Shown: positions 1,497 through 58,207, numbered from the stretch's first letter. The stretch is DNA of 60,543 bases from Kiritimatiellia bacterium (GCA_007126515.1 SLBD01000004.1:1-60543); one strand, 5' to 3'. The notes: generated by a model not told the origin, from the letters alone. A program made the numbers and translations.

Positions 1497-3224
1497 TTAT
1501 GGGCAGAATTCGCGCAATTCCTGATAGAGTGATCGAGCTCGGAGGTCATCTGGCCGCAGGCGCAACCGATGCTCCAACGCAGCCACGGCCTGGCAGATCT
1601 CGCCCTGTCGCGCCAAGCTCAGCGCTTGGTTGAATTGTGCTGTGGGATGTTCGGGGCGCAGCTCAGCGGCCCGGCCGAAGGCCGCCGCCGCAAGCAGAAA
1701 GTCCCCCAATTCCGCCTGCGCATGACCCCGCGCATGATGCAGATCGGCATTGTCAGGCGCCAGCGCTAGCCCGGCCTCGGCAACCGCGAGGGCACGAGCG
1801 GGATCTTCCATCGCAAGCAGCTGAACCGAGACATTGTGATAATCCACAGGCCGCAAATCAGGCAGTTGAACAGGCAGGAATACCACAGCCAACAAAGGCA
1901 CAAGCCAGAGTCGCCGTTGACGCTGCGGCCATGTGGTGCGGATCCATTCGGTCACTCCCGCAGCACCGAGAGCCACCATCAAAGGCACAAATGTCAACCG
2001 GTATCGGGCCGTAATAAAGAAAGCGGCCACAGACAGCCATCCTGTCAGCAAGGCCAATCGCCCGGCATAGGCTTTGGGGGCAAACAGAAGACCCATCCCC
2101 CCCAGCAACCCGAACCAGACAAATCCAGGCCACAGCCGGGACCGGAACAATCCATCTGTGATTCGCAGTTGCTCCAGTATGCGGAGGTCATCTACATCCA
2201 ATTGATTCCAGAACAAGGCGAGTTTGCGGGCGGTTAAAGCCAAAGCCTGCCCCGGCTGATTGCGCCAGAACCAACGTCCGCGCTGTGCCCACCAGGCGGA
2301 ACTTTCCGCCTGGCTAAGCTCACGACCAACGGACTGCTCCGCGAAAGCATGCGCATCTTCCAACATCAAGCGCGCCGTCATGCGGAAATTCTCGACGCGT
2401 ACAGGATACCCGGTGGCACGTTCGTGGTTGCCCATGTAGAAATTGAAACCGCCATGGGTCGTCAACAACACGAACTCGCCTTCCGCTCGTGTATTATGCA
2501 CCGCCACCGGCAACAACAAACAACTAAACGACAGGACTGACAACGCGATTCCGCGCCAAGGAATCATCTGGCATCGCCACCCCTTCCCGATTTGCCACCC
2601 CCAATACACCGCCATCAACGTCAGCGTTCCGGCAAAGCCGAGCGCAGCCATCCCCCCCAACAGTCCGACGCATAGGGCATCTTGCCAATGGCTCAAGCGC
2701 GCCCGATCCAAGATCAACACCAACATCGTGACCAACATCACATTCACGCTATTCGGCATCGTCACCCCTGCGTAGGCGATGGCCAGTGGATACATGGCGT
2801 ACAAAGTTGCTGCAGCCAAAGCGACCAGAGGATATGCGCCCCAGCGACGCGCCAATATCACCAAGCACGCCACCGTGACGCAGTCCGCAAAAGCCCCCAA
2901 AGCGGCAGCAGCAGTCAAGCTGGGGCCAAAGACGGCATATACTACGCCAAGGAGCCATGGGTACAGCGGCATATAACCGAACGCTCCATCGGGCCAGATC
3001 TGTCCATTGGCAATCGTCATCGCAGCCTCGTGATAAAGCATGCGATCATGGGCACTGGCGAATAGAGGGAATAAAGGAGATTGCCGGAACTGCAGGAAAA
3101 ACCACACTCGCACAAGAGCCGTCCATAGCACCGCCACGATCGCCAGCACCCGCCCGCCTATCATCGCAGGAACGACTTGTTTGACTTCACTCAACTGTTT
3201 CATCCACGACTCACAATAAAGCAA
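1497..3224 (-). CDS. polytopic membrane glycosyltransferase-like protein (GT39/ArnT-PMT-like) with C-terminal TPR repeats
   Basis: 575-aa ORF with many hydrophobic helices over about the first 430 aa. TPR-like repeats follow (LAPDNADLHHARGHAQAELGDF..., LRPEHPTAQFNQALSLARQGE...). Alternative start is Met8 at 3203. Confidence 0.5.
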   Translation of the reverse strand: MLYCESWMKQLSEVKQVVPAMIGGRVLAIVAVLWTALVRVWFFLQFRQSPLFPLFASAHDRMLYHEAAMTIANGQIWPDGAFGYMPLYPWLLGVVYAVFGPSLTAAAALGAFADCVTVACLVILARRWGAYPLVALAAATLYAMYPLAIAYAGVTMPNSVNVMLVTMLVLILDRARLSHWQDALCVGLLGGMAALGFAGTLTLMAVYWGWQIGKGWRCQMIPWRGIALSVLSFSCLLLPVAVHNTRAEGEFVLLTTHGGFNFYMGNHERATGYPVRVENFRMTARLMLEDAHAFAEQSVGRELSQAESSAWWAQRGRWFWRNQPGQALALTARKLALFWNQLDVDDLRILEQLRITDGLFRSRLWPGFVWFGLLGGMGLLFAPKAYAGRLALLTGWLSVAAFFITARYRLTFVPLMVALGAAGVTEWIRTTWPQRQRRLWLVPLLAVVFLPVQLPDLRPVDYHNVSVQLLAMEDPARALAVAEAGLALAPDNADLHHARGHAQAELGDFLLAAAAFGRAAELRPEHPTAQFNQALSLARQGEICQAVAALEHRLRLRPDDLRARSLYQELREFCP

Positions 3225-13479: not shown

Positions 13480-13824
13480 ATGAAATTAATAGTGGCATAT
13501 ATCCAACCCGAGCGCCTCAATGCAGTGAAGCAGTCGCTCTATGAGAAAGAGGTCTACCGCCTCTCCGTGATGAACGCCCTCGGCTGCGGTCAGCAGAAGG
13601 GGTATCACGAAAGCTACCGCGGTTCTGACATCGAGGTGAACTTGCTGAAGAAGATTCGGCTGGAAATCGCCGTCAATGACGAGTTCGTGGATAGCACAGT
13701 GGACGCGATCGTCAAAGGGGCGCGCACTGGCAAAATCGGCGATGGCAAGATCTTCATTCTCGACCTGCCCGACTGCATCCGCATTCGTACAGGAGAGAAA
13801 GGCAAAGACGCGATCGGCGGTTAA
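13480..13824 (+). CDS. glnK: P-II nitrogen regulatory protein
   Basis: 114 aa. It has a T-loop ...[14 protein letters not shown]... and the C-terminal P-II signature [11 protein letters not shown]. It lies immediately downstream of amtB. Confidence 0.9.
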
Positions 13825-22931: not shown

Positions 22932-24710
22932 TTAGTCCCGAATCACATCCTGCAGCGCCAGCATTTCCCGGAACAGCCCCGGGCGTGCCATCAATTCTTG
23001 ATAGGTTCCCACATCGGCAATCCGCCCCTCCTGCATCACCACAATGCGGTCAGCCCGGCGGATCGTTGACAGCCGATGCGCCACAATAAACGTGGTCCGA
23101 TCCCGAATCGCCCGCTCAATCGACTCCTGGATCTTGCGCTCAGAGACCACGTCCAGCGATGATGTCGCCTCGTCCAGAACCAGAATCCGCGGATTCCGGA
23201 TCAAGGCCCGAGCAATGGCAATCCGCTGACGCTGACCGCCCGACAGCAACGCCCCATCCTCGCCGATCCGGGTCTCCACTCCTTCAGGAAGACTCGCAAT
23301 CAATTCCGTCAAATTCGCCGCCGCCAACACGTCTCGCAGCAGCGCATCGGAAACACCTGTCAGACCATAGGCAATATTTTCCCGAATGGTGCCGGAAAAC
23401 AACACAGTTTCTTGAGGCACAACCGAAATAAAGCGGCGCGCCGTCCGCATATCGATCTCCTGCATATCCACCCCATCCAGCAAAATATGCCCCGATTGCG
23501 GACGGCGAAAACCGATCACCAACTGCATCATCGTCGATTTACCTGCCCCGCTGGGGCCCACCAACGCAATGCACTCTCCCGGCGCCACCGCCAAAGAGAA
23601 CTCCTCGACCGCAGCTCCCTTTTCTGCCTGATAAGAAAAGCTGACGTGGTCAAAATCAATTCGTCCCTGCAAAGACTCCAGCGCCATCCGGCCTTGGTTC
23701 ATTTCCAGGTCTGGACATTCCAGCACTTCGCCAATCGATCGAATCGACTCCACGCCCCGCGCCATTTGCGGATAGAAATGCAGCAGTTGCGAAATGCTCA
23801 TCACAATCATGCCGAACAGGCTTTGATACAGCACAATTTCGCCCACCGTAATCCAGCCCTGCAAACAAAACCAACTCATCACCGCCAGGCCAATAATCAT
23901 CGCCAGCTGAAACGAAACAAACGCCGACGCACCAAAGACCGCATTGATCAAATCCAATCGCCGACCGCGCTGATTCACCACACCAAACTGAGTCGAAATT
24001 CGCTGCGATTCGAATTCTTCCAAGCCATGCGCCCGCACCACCGGGATCATATTGATCATCTCCGCCACATCGCCCGACATCCGCTCCACCTCGGAGCGGA
24101 AATCCCGATTCCGTGCGGCCATCCGCCGCCGGAATAGAGTCCGCAATCCCACCACGATCGGCACCATCACCACGAAGAATCCCAACAAACGCGGCTCTCG
24201 CCACGAGGTGATAATCACAGCGAACAAGAACGAGAACAAGGCAAGCACCCCGCCCTCGAACAGGAACATGCAGAAGTTTTGAATTTGCTCCACATCCCGC
24301 AGCACCTTCGCCTGCAACCGTCCCGACTCCATCCGATCATGAAAAGCAATCGACAAATGCTGCATACGCGTCACCAAGGCTGTGCGCAACGTATGCTCCA
24401 AATCCCGCGTCGCCCCGCTCAACATCGAAATCATCAACGTCTGCATTGGCACATTTTGCAGAATCAAAATAAATACCGCGCCGAAATACATCACCATAAG
24501 ACGCAACGGAAACTCCTCCGGCTGCGTCAAGACATCAATCACCTGCGCGACCAGGAATGGAATCGCCCACACCGGCGAGTGCTTGATCAGCAGCACCAGC
24601 ACCAAGCTCACGTAAAACCACCACGGCCGCCCCACCCACTGGATCAGCGTCCGCAACGGGCGATGGCTGTGGTAATCGTATTCTAGAGGTCGAAAGGGTG
24701 TTTGCATCAA
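22932..24710 (-). CDS. ABC exporter, fused permease/ATPase (MsbA/multidrug-type)
   Basis: 592 aa with six N-terminal TM helices. Walker A is GPSGAGKST, the signature is LSGGQRQRIAIARAL and Walker B is ILVLDEATSSLD. Confidence 0.9.
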   Translation of the reverse strand: MMQTPFRPLEYDYHSHRPLRTLIQWVGRPWWFYVSLVLVLLIKHSPVWAIPFLVAQVIDVLTQPEEFPLRLMVMYFGAVFILILQNVPMQTLMISMLSGATRDLEHTLRTALVTRMQHLSIAFHDRMESGRLQAKVLRDVEQIQNFCMFLFEGGVLALFSFLFAVIITSWREPRLLGFFVVMVPIVVGLRTLFRRRMAARNRDFRSEVERMSGDVAEMINMIPVVRAHGLEEFESQRISTQFGVVNQRGRRLDLINAVFGASAFVSFQLAMIIGLAVMSWFCLQGWITVGEIVLYQSLFGMIVMSISQLLHFYPQMARGVESIRSIGEVLECPDLEMNQGRMALESLQGRIDFDHVSFSYQAEKGAAVEEFSLAVAPGECIALVGPSGAGKSTMMQLVIGFRRPQSGHILLDGVDMQEIDMRTARRFISVVPQETVLFSGTIRENIAYGLTGVSDALLRDVLAAANLTELIASLPEGVETRIGEDGALLSGGQRQRIAIARALIRNPRILVLDEATSSLDVVSERKIQESIERAIRDRTTFIVAHRLSTIRRADRIVVMQEGRIADVGTYQELMARPGLFREMLALQDVIRD

Positions 24711-24740: not shown

Positions 24741-24882
24741 TTTCCACTCAATGGAAGAAAAAAAACGCGTTTTTCCACTCAATGGAAACTTTTCCGGCGA
24801 GTTTTCCATTCAATGGAAAAAATCTAGTCGATTTTTCCACTCAATGGAAGTTTTTTGGGCCGATTTTCCATTCAATGGAAAA
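24741..24882 (+). repeat. array of five 31-bp-phased palindromic units (TTTT-CCAYTCAATGG-AAAA)
   Basis: Cores TTCCA[C/T]TCAATGGAA start at 24742, 24773, 24804, 24835 and 24866, so the spacing is exactly 31 bp four times. Spacers are not conserved in sequence. Confidence 0.95.
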
Positions 24883-24975: not shown

Positions 24976-26289
24976 ATGAGTACCCCCGTGAAATTCAATT
25001 TGCCCGCCGAGGAAATTCCCAAGCAATGGTACAACCTGGCTCCGGATTTTCCCGAACCGATGCCCCCCCCGCTGCATCCCGGCACTCGCGAACCCGCGGC
25101 ACTGAGCGATATGCAGGCCATCTTTCCCGACAATCTGATTGAGCAGGAAGTTTCACAGGAACGCTACATCGATGTCCCCGAAGAAGTCCGGGAAATCTAC
25201 GCCCTCTGGCGCCCCACCCCCTTGATTCGCGCGGTGCGATTGGAGCGCGCGTTGAATACACCGGCACACATCTATTATAAGTACGAAGGTGTGAGCCCAG
25301 CGGGAAGCCACAAACCCAATTCGGCGGTTCCGCAAGCTTATTACAATAAGCAAGCGGGCGTGAAACGCTTGGCCACGGAAACGGGCGCGGGCCAATGGGG
25401 ATCTTCCTTGGCGATGGCCTGTCAGTTGTTTGGGATCGAATGTGTGGTCTACATGGTCCGCGTCAGCTTTAACCAAAAGCCGTACCGCAAACTGATGATG
25501 CAAACTTGGGGGGCGACCGTACATGCCAGCCCCAGCTTGGAAACGGATTTTGGGCGCAAGGTATTGGCGGACGATCCAGACTGCTCCGGCTCCCTTGGCA
25601 TCGCGATCAGCGAGGCAATTGAAGATACGGTAAAAACTCCCAACACAAAGTATGCCTTGGGCAGTGTGTTGAATCATGTTTGCCTACACCAAAGCGTGAT
25701 TGGTCAGGAAACGATCAAGCAGATGGAATTGGCAGGCGAAGAGCCGGATGTGGTGATCGGCTGCGCTGGCGGGGGCAGCAATTTTGCCGGTATGGCGTTC
25801 CCCTTCATCGGTCGCAATCTACGCGAAGGCAAATCGACACGCCTAATCGCCGTCGAACCTGAGTCCTGCCCAACATTGACAGCCGGCGAACTCAAATACG
25901 ATTTTGGCGATACGGCAGAGACGACTCCGTTGTTGATGATGTATTCTCTCGGCCATACCTTCATGCCGCCTAGTATCCACTCCGGAGGATTACGCTATCA
26001 CGGCATGTCTCCGATGGTCAGTCACGCCCGCAAACTGGGGTTGATTGATGCAAAGGCCTATCCGCAGTTGCAGATCTTTGAAGCGGCGGTGCTGTTTGCC
26101 CGAACCGAGGGCCTGGTGCCTGCGCCTGAACCGGCGCACGCCATTCGCGCAGTGATCGACGAAGCCGTTCATGCCCGCGAAACGGGTGAGAAGAAAGTGA
26201 TTCTCTTCAACCTCTGCGGACACGGCATGCTGGATTTAGCCGCCTACGAAACCTACCTGTCCGGCACGATGAAGGAGCAGGAAGACTAA
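24976..26289 (+). CDS. trpB2: TrpB2-type tryptophan synthase beta subunit-like PLP enzyme
   Basis: 437 aa. It has the long N-terminal extension typical of TrpB2 ([15 protein letters not shown]...PPLHP), the PLP-lysine region [15 protein letters not shown] and the GGGSNFAG loop. No trpA is adjacent. Confidence 0.8.
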
Positions 26290-42618: not shown

Positions 42619-42636
42619 TTTTCCATTGAATGGAAA
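42619..42636 (-). repeat. solitary copy of the TTCCATT-N-AATGGAA palindrome between convergent stop codons
   Basis: TTTTCCATTGAATGGAAA is the exact reverse complement of the 7-bp-arm unit of the 24.8-kb array. It sits in the 27-bp gap between stops at 42611-13 (+) and 42641-43 (-). Confidence 0.9.
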
Positions 42637-47304: not shown

Positions 47305-48446
47305 CCCGCCCCCCCCTGCCGCCCAATCACACGCTGGGTGTCTTCGGCGGGGGCCAGCTGGGCCGCATGTTCGCTATGGCAGCCGCCCGACTCGGCTATC
47401 GCGTGGCCGTGTACTCCCCCGAACCCGACTGCCCGGCGGCCCATGTGAGCGCCCAGTTTATTTGCGCCGATTACACGGATGAAGCAGCGGTCCGCCGCTT
47501 TGCCGACTCGGTGGACGCGGTCACCTACGAATTCGAAAACGTGCCCTCCGACACGCTCCGCTGGATCGGGGATCGCGTCCCTGCCCTGCCCCAACCCGAC
47601 ATCCTACACACCTGCCGCCACCGGATTCGCGAAAAAACCTTCCTGCGCGACCACGGGATTCCAGTCACCCCATTCAAATCCGTCACCTCGGCAACCGAGC
47701 TCGAAGCTGCCGCTCAGCGACTCGGCGGAGCTGTCATTGTCAAAACCGTGGAACTGGGTTACGACGGCAAAGGTCAGGTCCGCTTCGACGGCTCCCAACC
47801 GGCCGCCTCTGCCTGGAAAGCTCTTGGCAATCCCGCCACAGCCATCGCCGAAGAAGTCATCGCGCTGGAAAAAGAATATTCCATCCTCGTCGCCCGCGAC
47901 ACCTCAGGCACAACTGTCTTCCACGGTCCTTACGAAAATACCCACCGGAACCACATTCTCGACACCACCGTCTGGCAAGCCAACGATCCATCGCCCATCG
48001 CCAACCAGCTCCGCGAAATTGCGGCAGCCGTGGCTCTGGCCTTCGATTTAACCGGGATGATTTGCGTCGAATGTTTTCTGTCGGCTACCGGGGACTTAAT
48101 GGTCAACGAAATTGCCCCGCGCCCCCACAACTCCGGACACGTGTCCATCGAAGCTGAATCCATCAGCCAGTTCGAGCAGCAGGTCCGAATGACCGCAGGC
48201 TGGCCCGCCGTCGCACCGCACCCGCACGCTCCCGCCGCTGCCATGGTCAATCTGCTTGGCGATCTTTGGGATGATGGCGAACCCGACTGGCAAGCCGTCC
48301 TCGATGATCCACGGGTCCACTTGCATCTCTACGGCAAACAAGCCGCGCGCCCCGGCCGTAAAATGGGCCACATCACCGCCCTCGCCGACACCCCTTCTGC
48401 GGCTCTCCAAGTTGCCCTTGCCGCCCGATCTCGCGTCAGCGGCTAG
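47301..48446 (+). CDS. purK: N5-carboxyaminoimidazole ribonucleotide synthase
   Basis: 381 aa. N-terminal [13 protein letters not shown] and an ATP-grasp body are present. It has an ATGA overlap with purE. Confidence 0.9.
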
Positions 48447-48721
48447 CCGTCAAACACAACGCGCCCGTTGTTCTTGCATTAACCGTTCCGAAATCCAGAG
48501 CTTGATCAGAGATTGACGACTCACGCCGATCATCTTGGAGAAACGCTTCTGAGGATCGAATTCAAAACACATAATGGTATAATAGCTATACCGTTTCGGG
48601 TGTCAAACACCGCTCTGGGGCAAACAGCAATTCTCATTATGACATACGATTCCTGCTCACAACCCGCCCTCGCCGCCCGCAATCGATTGACAAATTGAGC
48701 GAGCGGTGACAGCTTATTATT

Positions 48722-48922
48722 ATGACTACTGTAAAGGAAATAGAAGCTGCTGTGGAGCGCCTATCCGCTCCCAGTCTGGATGAGTTTCGCACGTGGTTTG
48801 CGGAATTTGATGCGGCGTCATGGGATCGCGAGTTTGAACAGGATGCAATCCAAGGAGCTCTGGATGGACTTGCCGATGAGGCGCTTCGTGATTTGGATAA
48901 CGGGCGCTGTACCAAACTATGA
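48722..48922 (+). CDS. putative type II antitoxin (partner of the downstream RelE/ParE-like toxin)
   Basis: 66-aa acidic protein with a 4-nt ATGA overlap with the toxin gene. Its size and order are typical of type II TA modules. The family is not assigned. Confidence 0.5.
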   Translation: MTTVKEIEAAVERLSAPSLDEFRTWFAEFDAASWDREFEQDAIQGALDGLADEALRDLDNGRCTKL

Positions 48923-49179
48923 ATCATTTGGCGCACCCTCGGTTCTGGGATCGATATCACAAATTACCAGAACATGTGCGGTCACTGGCTGATCAGAACT
49001 TTGACCTGTTGAAAGTAAACCCTCGCCATCCTTCGCTGCATCTGAAGAAAGTTGGGCGGCATTGGTCAGTTCGTGTTGGGATACACTACCGCGCCCTCGG
49101 CGTTGACTATCCAGAGGGAATTCTGTGGTACTGGATCGGAACCCACTCCGAATACGATCGCCTAACGAAGTACATCTAG
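48919..49179 (+). CDS. RelE/ParE-superfamily type II toxin
   Basis: 86 aa. The pattern F-W-x-x-Y-x-x-L-P...NPRHPSLHLKKV...WSVRVGIHYRALG...WYWIGTHSEYDRL matches a common RelE/ParE-like toxin family as I recall it. Confidence 0.6.
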   Translation: MNHLAHPRFWDRYHKLPEHVRSLADQNFDLLKVNPRHPSLHLKKVGRHWSVRVGIHYRALGVDYPEGILWYWIGTHSEYDRLTKYI

Positions 49180-49239
49180 CGACTCATCCTGATTGCGAGC
49201 TGGATTTATTCTCGCGGAGACGGTATAGCTGCTTTCTGA

Positions 49240-49350
49240 TTTTCCACTCAATGGAAATAAAATCGGGACTTTTTCCACTCAATGGAAACTTTTTGGCCCT
49301 TTTTTCCACTCAATGGAAAATTTTGAGACGAATTTTCCACTCAATGGAAA
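49240..49350 (+). repeat. array of four 31-bp-phased palindromic units (same family as 24741-24882) abutting the pheS start
   Basis: Cores TTCCACTCAATGGAA start at 49242, 49273, 49304 and 49335, so the spacing is exactly 31 bp three times. All have the same orientation and the same CTCAA centre. Confidence 0.95.
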
Positions 49351-49352
49351 CA

Positions 49353-50372
49353 ATGATTATGGAACAAATTGAGACAACGAAAACGGCCGCGCTGGATGCC
49401 ATCGCGAACGCAAATGGCCTGGATGAGCTGGATGCCGTACGGGTGCAGTACATGGGACGCAAGGGTCTGATTCCGGACCTGATGAAGCATCTCAAAACGA
49501 TCCCGAACGAAGAAAAACGCGCCTACGGACAACGCGTCAATGATCTCAAGACGGCGTTTCAAGAAGCGCTCGATGCCCGCAAACAGGAATTGGAAGCAGC
49601 GGCGGAAGAAACAGTGACGGCGGCATTCGACCTCACGTTGCCAGGCGAATGGCGAGGCGTGGGATCGAAACATCCGATCACGCAATTGACCGAGCGAGCA
49701 ATTCGCATCTTCCAGACGTTAGGCTTCACGGTTGCCGACGGTCCGGACATTGAAACGGTGTTCAACAATTTCGATGCGCTCAACCATCCGCCGGGACATC
49801 CAGCTCGCGATGTCAAAGATACGTTCTATCTGGACGATCCCGACACACTGCTGCGTACACACACGTCGCCAGTCCAAGTTCGCTATATGTTGTCGCATCC
49901 CCCACCGATTCGAATTATCGCACCGGGGCGCTGCTATCGTCGTGACACGCCGGACGCAACGCATAGCGCTAACTTCCATCAGATCGAAGGCTTGTATGTG
50001 GCGGAGAAGGTGTCGCTGGCGGATTTGAAAGGCGACTTGTCGCACTTCGCTCGCGAGGCGATGGGGCCCAATACGAAAGTACGGTTCCGCCCTCACTTTT
50101 TCCCCTTCACGGAACCCAGCGTCGAAGTCGATTTCTCCTGCCACGTCTGCGGAGGCAAAGGCTGCCGCGTCTGCAAGAACAGTGGCTGGATCGAAATTGC
50201 CGGGGCCGGCATGGTTGATCCGAACGTGTTCAAAGCCGTCGGCTACGATCCGGATAAGGTGACTGGGTACGCGTTCGGGATGGGCATTGAGCGGATTGCG
50301 ATGATCTTGTTTGGGATCACAGATATTCGCCACCTGTACGAAAACGATGCGCGGTATCTGGCGCAGTTTTAG
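49353..50372 (+). CDS. pheS: phenylalanine-tRNA ligase alpha subunit
   Basis: Class II motifs are present (FRPHFFPFTEPSVEVD, GAGMVDPNV, GYAFGMGIERIAMI). Start candidates are 49344 (inside the last repeat), 49353 and 49359. The tracked ORF start at 49125 only translates the repeat array. Confidence 0.9.
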   Translation: MIMEQIETTKTAALDAIANANGLDELDAVRVQYMGRKGLIPDLMKHLKTIPNEEKRAYGQRVNDLKTAFQEALDARKQELEAAAEETVTAAFDLTLPGEWRGVGSKHPITQLTERAIRIFQTLGFTVADGPDIETVFNNFDALNHPPGHPARDVKDTFYLDDPDTLLRTHTSPVQVRYMLSHPPPIRIIAPGRCYRRDTPDATHSANFHQIEGLYVAEKVSLADLKGDLSHFAREAMGPNTKVRFRPHFFPFTEPSVEVDFSCHVCGGKGCRVCKNSGWIEIAGAGMVDPNVFKAVGYDPDKVTGYAFGMGIERIAMILFGITDIRHLYENDARYLAQF

Positions 50373-50505
50373 GCTGGGAGACGCAGTTGCCTCTCCAGTT
50401 CTGTTCAACCTCTCGATTGCGGCTCGGCGGGTCGCCTCGCCCTACCTTGCTGAAAGCGAAGTCGGCCTTGCTCAGCAAGCCAAATGACATTGGGAGGAAG
50501 CGTCA

Positions 50506-56393: not shown

Positions 56394-56497
56394 AACGGCA
56401 GGATGCCCGCTCCCCTCTCCGGACTTTTCTTTTGCCGCAGACGGGGGATTCGGGGTATGCTCCCACCCGATTTTCATCTGTTTTGTTTGAAGGAGTT

Positions 56498-57463
56498 ATG
56501 ATGCGCATTTTATCGGGTATTCAGCCCACGGGAAAACCTCATTTGGGCAACTATTTTGGCATGATGAAGCCTGCCCTGGAACTGCAAGAGCAGGGTGAGG
56601 CGTACCTTTTTATTGCAAATTATCATGCCTTGACGACCATTGCGGATCCGACGGAGTTACGGGACAACACTCGTGATGTGGCGCTGGATTTCCTCGCCTG
56701 CGGATTGGACCCCAAGAAAACGGCGTTCTATCGGCAAAGCGATGTACCGGAGGTGACGGAATTGACGTGGCTGCTGGCTTGCCTGACTCCGATGGGTTTA
56801 CTGGAGCGGTGTCATTCGTACAAGGACAAAACGGCGCGGGGTTTGCCGGCTTCCCACGGACTGTTTTCCTATCCCGTGCTAATGGCGGCGGACATTCTCG
56901 CTGTGCAGTCCAATGTCGTCCCGGTGGGCCGGGATCAGAAGCAGCATATCGAAGTGACTCGGGATCTGGCGATCAAGTTCAACAACCAGTACGGAGAGGT
57001 GTTCACAATTCCAGAACCATCCATCCGTGATGAGTCGGCGGCGATCCCGGGATTGGACGGCCAGAAGATGTCGAAGTCATACAACAACACGATCGAGATC
57101 TTTGGTGCGCCGAAAGAAATGAAAAAGAAAATCATGCGGATTGTTACAGACAGCAAGGCATTGGAAGAGGTGAAAGACCCCGACACCTGCACGATTTTTG
57201 CGTTGTATCGACTGTTGGCGGATGCAGAGGCCCAAGCAGAACTGGCGGCGAGATACCGCGCGGGCGGGATGGGCTACGGCGATGCCAAGAAGGCTTTGCT
57301 GGCGGCATTCGAGGAACACTTTGGCCCCTTGCTGGAGCGCCGCGAACAACTGCGACAGGACATGGACTATGTTGAGGATGTCCTTCAGGATGGAGCCCGC
57401 TGCGCGCGGGCGCTGGCGGCAGTGACGCTGCAGCGCGCCCGCCAGGCAACAGGACTGGAATAA
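56498..57463 (+). CDS. trpS: tryptophan-tRNA ligase
   Basis: The HIGH-type motif is GKPHLGNYFG and the KMSKS motif is GQKMSKS. AGGAG is immediately upstream. The second ATG, at 56501, is equally possible. Confidence 0.95.
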   Translation: MMRILSGIQPTGKPHLGNYFGMMKPALELQEQGEAYLFIANYHALTTIADPTELRDNTRDVALDFLACGLDPKKTAFYRQSDVPEVTELTWLLACLTPMGLLERCHSYKDKTARGLPASHGLFSYPVLMAADILAVQSNVVPVGRDQKQHIEVTRDLAIKFNNQYGEVFTIPEPSIRDESAAIPGLDGQKMSKSYNNTIEIFGAPKEMKKKIMRIVTDSKALEEVKDPDTCTIFALYRLLADAEAQAELAARYRAGGMGYGDAKKALLAAFEEHFGPLLERREQLRQDMDYVEDVLQDGARCARALAAVTLQRARQATGLE

Positions 57464-57466
57464 GGC

Positions 57467-58207
57467 ATGACACCCCCGGAAGAATATCGCGTTAAACTGG
57501 AGGTGTTTGAGGGTCCACTGGACCTGCTGCTGTTCCTGATCCGTCGCGAGGAAGTCGACATCTACGACATCCCCATCGAACGGATCACGCAGCAATACAT
57601 GCAGTATTTGGATTTGATGCGCATGCTGGACCTGAACATCGCCGGCGAATTCATCGTCATGGCAGCGACGCTGATGATGATCAAAAGTCGTCTACTGCTC
57701 CCTGTGGAGGAGCGGGCGGCGGAGGATGAGGCTGAAGACGAAGATGATCCCCGCTGGGATCTGGTCCGACAATTGGTCGAATACAAGAAGTTCAAGGACG
57801 CTGCGATGCATCTGCAGTCTCTGGAAGAGATGCAGGAAAATATTTTTATCCGAACGGGAGAGGGCGTGGACTTGGGCACTCAGCCGGATGTGGCGTTGCA
57901 GGATGTCAGCATTTTTGATCTGATTGCGGCTTTCAATGAGGCCTTGAACAAGGTTGAGAAGGAAGAATTGCGCGAGATCTTTGCTGAACGGTACACGGTC
58001 GGCGAAAAGATTGATGATTTGATGGAACGAATGCGGACTCAAGACCGGTTGTCGCTGACCACCCTTTTTCAAGGGATGCGATCGCGGCACGAAATTGTCT
58101 GTACGTTTCTTGCGGTGCTGGAGCTGATGCGATTGAAGCATGTTCGCGCCGTGCAAGAACAGGCATACGGTCCAATCGAGTTGGAGCGGGCGACGGAGGA
58201 AACATGA
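57467..58207 (+). CDS. scpA: segregation and condensation protein A
   Basis: LEVFEGPLDLLLFLIRREEVDIYDIPI is the canonical ScpA N-terminus. Length is 246 aa. Confidence 0.9.
   Translation: MTPPEEYRVKLEVFEGPLDLLLFLIRREEVDIYDIPIERITQQYMQYLDLMRMLDLNIAGEFIVMAATLMMIKSRLLLPVEERAAEDEAEDEDDPRWDLVRQLVEYKKFKDAAMHLQSLEEMQENIFIRTGEGVDLGTQPDVALQDVSIFDLIAAFNEALNKVEKEELREIFAERYTVGEKIDDLMERMRTQDRLSLTTLFQGMRSRHEIVCTFLAVLELMRLKHVRAVQEQAYGPIELERATEET

Follow-up and report, generated by a model that had tools for sequence, protein, structure and literature searches.

We analysed a stretch of 60,543 nucleotides from a Kiritimatiellia bacterium (GCA_007126515.1, SLBD01000004.1:1-60543; hereafter the window), in which an array of four short repeats stands directly in front of pheS, the gene for the alpha subunit of phenylalanine--tRNA ligase. 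The gene (49353..50372, + strand) was identified by TIGR00468 (E = 5.6e-97), and its start codon is at 49353 (MIMEQ...) or at 49359, the latter being the choice of database gene callers (337 aa). Exact cores TTCCACTCAATGGAA start at 49242, 49273, 49304 and 49335 on the + strand; unit 1 hence occupies 49242..49256, unit 2 49273..49287, unit 3 49304..49318 and unit 4 49335..49349. A first-pass annotation of the sequence had described four cores with a spacing of exactly 31 bp, a single orientation and a common CTCAA centre, and exact matching together with Tandem Repeats Finder, which returned a period of 31, confirmed this description. The three 16-nt spacers, ataaaatcgggacttt (49257-49272), actttttggccctttt (49288-49303) and aattttgagacgaatt (49319-49334), are fixed in length and free in sequence; they share only a pattern of an A/T run, a G+C hexamer (TCGGGA, TGGCCC and GAGACG) and a T run, as had been annotated, with A/T-rich ends and a G+C-rich middle. 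The array ends 3-9 nt 5' of the pheS start. No Shine-Dalgarno-like sequence precedes the start codon other than the 3' arm of the last unit, TGGAA(A): TGGAAA (49345-49350) is the sole purine-rich stretch 5' of the in-frame ATGs, of which 49344 lies inside unit 4 and 49353 and 49359 come after it, again in agreement with the first reading. The repeat is strongly non-random. The window contains 13 matches to the motif with at most two mismatches where 0.14 are expected (∼90-fold above chance), and none of 100 shuffles gave as many. Finally, the pheS array is identical in an ENA contig, and a sister array of five units (24742..24880, + strand; centres CTCAA or TTCAA, exact 31-bp phase) is identical in two independent read-set assemblies. 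Because independent assemblies carry identical copies, the arrays are no assembly artefact.

Upstream of the array we found a putative pheS promoter (49200..49229, + strand), made of a -35-like CTGGAT (49200-49205), an 18-nt spacer and a -10-like TATAGC (49224-49229), which ends 12 nt before unit 1. A strict sigma70 consensus scan did not call this promoter in the window; we infer the arrangement of promoter and array from conservation, since the promoter-like pair GTGACA (CTGGAT in the lineage of the window), 17-18 nt, TATA[GCA]C can be aligned in eight of nine orthologous pheS loci. The first unit starts 8-20 nt after the -10 element at the array-bearing loci; the pair is also present at two pheS loci that have no array, where the ATG is ∼30 nt past the -10. 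Because the conserved pair lies upstream of it, the array would fall within the initial transcribed region and is probably part of the transcribed leader, with the centre of unit 1 ∼13-15 nt past the presumed transcription start, which is a classical position for an operator. A pheS transcript starting 3' of the array, named in advance by the first-pass annotation as the finding that would speak against a leader, is thus not what is predicted in silico.

The array is kept at pheS in relatives whose PheS proteins are 71-92% identical to that of the window, despite differing unit number (1, 3, 4, 6 or 7), spacers and unit centre. Within the 90% identity cluster of the window's PheS, one locus (L247) carries four CTCAA units that are identical to the window together with their flanks, and three (L243-245) carry seven units with CTCAA or TTCAA centres; six units with the same two centres are found at 92% PheS identity (L246). 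Three units with ATCGT or ATCAT centres precede pheS at 85% identity (L249), six units with ATCGT centres (one ATCAT) at 83% (L252) and a single ATCGT unit at 84% (L253), where ∼150 nt separate the unit from the pheS ATG. A single ATGGC unit stands 16 nt before the ATG in "Verrucomicrobia bacterium S94" (CP036201, L248; 71%), and loci at 80% (L250/L251) and 73% (L254) have no unit before pheS. In all multi-unit pheS arrays the spacing is exactly 31 bp and the last unit touches the start codon. The centre depends on the lineage, CTCAA/TTCAA in that of the window and ATCGT/ATCAT in L249, L252 and L253, and each genome keeps to its own type, which would be expected of sites that co-evolve with the protein recognizing them. 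The gene upstream of pheS varies: a ParE-like toxin gene in the window, and recR, a glycosyltransferase gene, an outer-membrane protein gene or a GIY-YIG gene elsewhere. The PheS homologues that carry names belong to Kiritimatiellae, Pontiella, S94 and Lentisphaerae, on which basis we assign the window to a Kiritimatiellota-like bacterium. Because the array is retained at the same place in relatives despite these other changes, the comparison makes it very likely that it is relevant to pheS expression, and the repeat is probably functional there.

The surroundings of pheS have been rearranged on both sides. A small open reading frame followed by the ParE-like toxin gene (PF24732; 48722..49179, + strand) lies between purK and the promoter block and is an insertion relative to close relatives (L243-245), in which recR stands there instead, ahead of the corresponding promoter block and array. 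The site seems prone to rearrangement, with the toxin-antitoxin pair as an apparently recent arrival. On the other side, a hydantoinase-A-like gene rather than pheT follows pheS, as the first reading of the sequence had it. Where the array has several units (window 50373-50505, L243, L249 and L252), pheS is not followed by pheT, and the two genes are adjacent in L250, L253 and L254, which have no unit or a single one; S94 has a single unit, yet PFK is found downstream of its pheS. Loss of the pheST operon and gain of the array mostly coincide.

The pheS array is one copy of a widespread, apparently undescribed family of phased dyads at gene starts in Kiritimatiellota-like bacteria. We scanned metagenomes with a query of two TTCCA-N5-TGGAA units 31 bp apart and obtained at least 120 loci; the figures given for the family are those among the matches listed. 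The loci come from activated sludge, digesters and lakes, their G+C content ranges from 0.47 to 0.70, an array has 2-7 units, and several loci of 3-13 kb hold two or three arrays each. Spacings between successive units, counted over the 120 loci listed after exclusion of one query-required 31-bp pair per locus, fall into discrete classes of 22 bp (n=56), 29-32 bp (n=82), 41-43 bp (n=14) and 50-52 bp (n=4), followed by 61/63, 73/74 and 94/95 bp with two cases each. One value only, 17, lies outside these classes, and the best-fit period is ∼10.25 bp. The consensus of 416 units is TTCCA-N2-S-N2-TGGAA, with C or G, equally frequent, at the central base in 411 units. Only 37% of all units have a Watson-Crick pair at positions 7 and 9, a fixed C/A asymmetry is frequent at positions 6 and 10 (in the window too), and a T-rich 5' flank and an A-rich 3' flank extend the 15-bp dyad to ∼22 bp. 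Spacers of the 31-bp class (n=159) have an A+T content of 0.8-0.9 at their ends and 0.3-0.4 in their middle; the A/T-rich segments thereby lie ∼9-10 bp, and the G+C-rich segment ∼15.5 bp, from each dyad centre, which is the pattern expected of DNA bent toward a bound protein. When the 15-mer TTCCAYTCAATGGAA was searched against 596 Gb of genome contigs, the matches listed were single and in unrelated phyla, as by chance, and searches of the literature for the motif strings or for Kiritimatiellota repeats found no description. Thirteen viral-class contigs from IMG/VR (L257-L269) carry similar phased arrays of up to six units; they may be prophage-bearing fragments of host genomes or phages of these hosts.

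We then considered the position of the arrays relative to genes, using a codon-usage gene caller that reproduces the genes of the window and is approximate in the metagenomic loci. By these calls the arrays of the metagenomic loci are never intragenic. The flanking genes are in tandem in 57 cases, divergent in 36 and convergent in 7, as compared with 337, 96 and 88 for background gaps of the same loci; arrays are thus found in convergent gaps in 7 of 100 cases versus 17% for the background, and in divergent gaps in 36% versus 18%. The median distance from an array to the next start codon is 50 nt, a value biased short by the choice of start. Pfam matches and direct reading identified array neighbours in amino-acid metabolism and tRNA charging (aroC, at two closely related loci, trpA, trpS, metG and glutamate dehydrogenase), in nucleotide and cofactor synthesis (adk, purM, nadD, nadE, panB and folP) and in other functions (tadA, rmlC, alr, HMG-CoA reductase, one TetR-family gene and toxin-antitoxin pairs); in proteins encoded beside a number of large or recurring arrays, the only Pfam matches were of the PEP-CTERM, TPM and rmlC types. 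The neighbours are a broad, mostly housekeeping set, and pairwise clustering of the array-flanking genes revealed no common family and no recurrent neighbouring regulator. Immediately after an array we saw a single transcription-factor gene, this TetR-family gene, which follows the array at 1204-1280 of L179; part of that array is duplicated ∼1.9 kb away (3084-3129). Genes of aromatic amino acids are somewhat over-represented (aroC, trpA and trpS, in addition to pheS and a trpB-like gene in the window). A regulon of aromatic amino-acid (Phe/Trp) genes was nevertheless rejected as the principal explanation, on the diversity of the other neighbours and on the array at the trpB-like gene, which is not conserved. 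Sigma70-like promoters are not enriched next to the metagenomic arrays (2/106 versus 3.1 expected), and no position-specific signal was detected around the arrays past their AA/TT flanks. With no enrichment either up- or downstream, we rejected the possibilities that the units are themselves sigma70 promoters or that a promoter lies at a fixed distance from them.

The other copies in the window are similarly placed between genes. The sister array lies between divergent genes, an msbA-like ABC exporter gene (22932-24710, - strand) and a TrpB-like gene (24976-26289, + strand). A sigma70-like site on the - strand, from 24950 to 24923 (TTGACG, 16 nt, CAAAAT), faces through this array toward the exporter gene, and the array may belong to the exporter leader, instead of or in addition to the upstream region of the TrpB-like gene. 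Two short-read assemblies of the TrpB-like locus (L001 1-160 and L002 1-160) begin exactly at the first unit of the array, which suggests either that the sequence to its left is polymorphic or that assemblers break at the repeats. In a relative with 85% identity the TrpB-like gene has no array, and its 21-kb locus is devoid of any motif. A solitary unit, TTCCATTCAATGGAA, is found on the - strand (42621..42635) in the 27-bp gap between the convergent gcvP and DUF2867/NAD-binding genes. Aligned with each other, the spacers of the pheS and 24.7-kb arrays showed no more likeness than their common composition pattern explains. Elsewhere in the window, trpS is followed directly by scpA (56432-58207) and has no unit before it, unlike the trpS homologue in L185, and a P-II nitrogen regulatory protein gene is located at 13480-13824.

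We propose that the units are duplex-DNA sites for a dimeric protein that oligomerizes on one face of the helix, a reading to which we give about an even chance. Firstly, the central G or C, the non-complementary positions 7 and 9, the C/A asymmetry and the flank bias argue for a dyad that is read as duplex DNA by a dimer. Secondly, since the spacings between units are quantised by the helical repeat, the dimers would assemble on one face. Thirdly, because the same site system adjoins many unrelated genes, the array is most likely not a device specific to pheS or to Phe/Trp, and a global factor is more plausible than a sensor of phenylalanine. The first-pass annotation had suggested that the array is an alternative control device for pheS; its relevance to pheS is upheld by its retention in relatives and by the promoter upstream, and the specificity implied for pheS or for Phe/Trp supply is not, since the same arrays stand beside unrelated genes. 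At pheS itself the array is probably an operator array downstream of the promoter.

Binding, oligomerization and repression, all three of which we infer, could proceed as follows. A homodimeric protein would read each 15-bp dyad TTCCA-N2-(G/C)-N2-TGGAA with its T- and A-rich flanks (∼22 bp), and neighbouring dimers, sitting on the same face two, three or more turns apart, would touch or form a single oligomer, thereby bending the DNA or wrapping it around themselves. In the pheS leader, the first site would have its centre just past the presumed transcription start and the last would cover the ribosome-binding region. Occupancy from one to the other would interfere with elongation or with escape from the promoter, with a tightness and a cooperativity set by unit number, 1-7 in natural variants. 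The same protein and sites would serve many housekeeping and biosynthetic genes of the lineage.

Several observations weigh against this proposal. The search for a candidate protein was negative: ten small proteins of the window contain no transcription-factor domain, no regulator gene recurs beside the arrays, and tblastn with E. coli Lrp as a query gave nothing below E = 0.4 in the 775 kb of window and loci, which is a weak test. Operators of a global regulator are not usually such near-perfect copies as these sites are, and modules recur at unrelated loci together with their spacers, more like a copied element than like independent operators. The order of promoter then array is seen at pheS only, sigma70-like sequences not being enriched at the other arrays, the array before the trpB-like gene is not conserved in the 85%-identity relative, and the distances from array to start codon are biased short by the gene caller.

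A wider and more tentative version of the proposal, which we regard as possible but rather doubtful, is that Kiritimatiellota-like members of the Planctomycetes-Verrucomicrobia-Chlamydiae (PVC) group possess an undescribed genome-wide system of near-perfect, helically phased dyads, with arrays of 1-7 or more units at the starts of many housekeeping genes and next to the probable replication origin, bound by one abundant oligomeric protein that wraps the DNA. The number and phase of the units would, with the same reserve, act as a tunable, fast-evolving dial of expression, possibly coupled to replication or growth, and sites and protein would co-evolve.

Among the alternatives, the one that survives best, unlikely as we consider it, is that of a dispersed repeat, selfish or neutral, akin to REP/BIME, BOX or MIRU elements, copying itself and changing by slippage, whose position at pheS is tolerated and not used. 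Such a repeat would account for the variation of unit number between close strains (4, 6 or 7 units at PheS cluster identities of at least 90%) and for stereotyped modules whose spacers are conserved while the flanks of the loci are unrelated. Thus a four-unit module (centres ATCAT, ATCAT, ACCAT and ATCAT; spacings 31, 30 and 22) recurs in L123, L125, L130, L147, L155, L168, L210 and L234, with partly conserved spacers such as aaccgccgaaaaattt, in contigs whose G+C content is 0.54-0.70 where measured; in another subtype the module that recurs has three units (spacings 31 then 22), and tblastx matches between module-bearing loci are limited to the arrays. The density of units is also uneven, with 10 units in the 60 kb of the window versus one site in 19 kb and none in 21 kb in another lineage, and contigs often break at arrays. 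Against it, the place at pheS is retained in lineages with different unit centres, and the spacers keep an exact length while their sequence drifts, in spite of slippage-prone A/T runs. Depletion from convergent gaps and enrichment in divergent ones are the opposite of what REP elements show, the helical quantisation implies a structural constraint, and no transposase gene was seen beside the arrays, although no systematic search was made for one.

A leader-RNA device is, in our view, quite unlikely. The units would fold into hairpins, the last of which would hide the Shine-Dalgarno-like GGAA, and translation or stability would be set by temperature, by an RNA-binding protein or by the supply of Phe or Trp. 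The conserved promoter-like element upstream, which probably places the array in the 5' untranslated region, the position of the last unit at the start codon in multi-unit arrays, with the sole Shine-Dalgarno-like sequence in its 3' arm, and the single polarity of all units of the pheS and 24.7-kb arrays, each of them foldable, are all in keeping with this device. The hairpins themselves are weak, from -4.2 to -6 kcal/mol for the units of the window, and the minimum-free-energy fold of the whole leader (z = -1.83) drops them. Furthermore, the inner stem is complementary in just 37% of units, a C/A mismatch is conserved, and the equal use of C and G at the centre of the loop is in keeping with a duplex-DNA dyad; selection for a hairpin, in RNA or as a cruciform, would not account for these features. 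Spacings at multiples of ∼10.3 nt have no rationale in RNA, 36 of the 100 classifiable arrays lie between divergent genes, and the leader yielded no Rfam family, no terminator and no leader peptide with terminator. Occlusion of the ribosome-binding site by an RNA hairpin, as envisaged in the first-pass annotation, is therefore unlikely in view of the weak folds, the helical spacing and the non-covarying inner stem.

It is very unlikely that the array marks oriC or helps to organize it beside pheS, the half-site TTTTCCAC being DnaA-box-like. We examined GC skew over 20-60 kb per genome. In the window, the cumulative G-C skew reaches its lowest value at 48,684, 0.56 kb to the left of the pheS array; in L249, L252 and L253 it does so 56 bp to 0.8 kb to the left of the array or site at pheS (skew-minimum regions: window 48400-49400; L249 9800-10000; L252 9000-9830; L253 7600-8270). 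In L249 the skew on the right stays at +0.11 to +0.35 over genes of the minus strand, and in the window it is negative over plus-strand genes left of the pheS array, so that the switch is not an effect of the coding strand alone; the region is also low in G+C (0.49). In contrast, the skew to the right in the window is by estimate small once the coding-strand effect is removed, the pheS locus of S94 shows no switch across 21 kb, and a second, equally good array 24.5 kb away has none. Among testable arrays, 4/29 are origin-like versus 5% of random positions. At the level of the motif, TTTTCCAC agrees with TTWTNCACA at eight of nine positions, the units of the window give TTTTCCACT and TTTTCCATT with one or two mismatches, and some metagenomic units contain a perfect TTTTCCACA; the relatives, however, carry TTTTCCAAT, which lacks the CACA core of DnaA boxes (CCAAT replaces CCACA). 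The dyad is strict and its 5-bp centre fixed, which points to a dimer; binding by DnaA is monomeric. No canonical cluster of DnaA boxes was found within the 60 kb, and no dnaA gene in the window or the loci. Hence, of the marks of an oriC, the change of skew from minus to plus is present at the pheS array, the array is not a cluster of DnaA 9-mers, and it is not the one such locus of its chromosome, given the 24.7-kb array and the 42.6-kb unit. The chromosomal replication origin of the clade may nonetheless be near pheS, and the coincidence of the skew minimum with this gene in four related genomes is a lead to the replication origin of the group.

The last alternative, a classical pheS control by a leader peptide of Phe codons with an attenuator or by a T-box riboswitch, neither of which the first reading had seen, is almost certainly wrong: reading in frame through the units does yield Phe and Trp codons (TTT/TTC and TGG), but Rfam over 48900-49500 returned no T-box and no other family even at E <= 1, no terminator-like hairpin was found in the pheS leader, there is no separate short open reading frame with its own start, and the same units adjoin dozens of unrelated genes.

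If the units are operators of one global oligomeric factor, they provide a known and nearly invariant bait, and hence a directly testable entry point into transcription control in Kiritimatiellota and most of the PVC group, which is apparently little studied and on which our literature searches found nothing. The one to seven units present in natural variants of the same promoter are a natural dose series for cooperativity, and the strict quantisation of spacing is among the cleanest sequence-only signatures known to us of protein assembly on one face of the helix. The element is not a replacement for an amino-acid-specific riboswitch, and annotation should not class the array as a pheS leader.

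We finally compared the array with known systems. CRISPR arrays have repeats of 23-47 bp, unique spacers of similar or greater length and cas genes nearby; the conserved unit here is ∼19-22 bp, the spacers are 7, 16 or 27 nt long and of constrained composition, and no cas domain was detected among the proteins scanned, and a CRISPR array was rejected. In plasmid centromeres such as sopC of F and parC of R1, tandem repeats bound by dimers with a period of whole helical turns form a wrapped complex at one locus per replicon, beside the partition genes. The tandem dyads and the whole-turn period are shared with the arrays, whereas the latter occupy many chromosomal loci at gene starts, and no partition genes were seen next to these loci, pairwise clustering having given no recurrent family of neighbours. 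DnaA boxes of oriC resemble the units in their T-rich half-site ending in CCAC, in their helically phased clusters and in the GC-skew minimum at the pheS array, and differ from them in the strict dyads, in the absence of the CACA core in relatives, in the several arrays per region and in the absence of dnaA nearby. Short intergenic palindromic or tandem units, strain-variable in number and recurring as modules, are common to the arrays and to REP/BIME, BOX and MIRU-VNTR elements. Those elements are found mainly at 3' ends or inside operons, and REPs alternate in orientation and go with a RAYT transposase; the arrays favour gene 5' ends and divergent regions, with strict phase and direct orientation, and are not placed as REP/BIME elements are. 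To our knowledge, no REP/BIME, BOX or MIRU element shows a spacing quantised by the helical repeat.

Two families of regulators come closer. NrdR sites are two tandem palindromic boxes approximately 31-32 bp apart (PMC2892513). Tandem palindromes at this distance in promoter regions, with repression as the outcome, fit the spacing of the arrays; NrdR sites, however, number two, have another consensus and serve the ribonucleotide-reductase regulon, whereas one to seven units stand beside many kinds of genes here, and no nrd gene is among the families reported for array-flanking genes. Lrp-type regulators, as helix-turn-helix dimers, bind clusters of 13-17-bp inverted repeats that are two or three helical turns apart on one face, and bend the DNA or wrap it around interacting dimers or octamers; their targets are often genes of amino-acid metabolism (PMC2995911). 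The 15-bp dyad falls within this range of lengths, the dominant spacings of 22 and 30-32 bp correspond to two and three turns on one face, and the neighbours include pheS, trpB-like, aroC, trpA, trpS and metG. Lrp sites differ in having an A/T-rich centre, where the units have C or G in 411/416, and in being degenerate, where the units are nearly perfect copies, and Lrp sites do not typically form arrays of as many as seven units after a promoter. By analogy, the closest published behaviour would be that of Lrp-type regulators, with NrdR also close, and we place the array in neither family.

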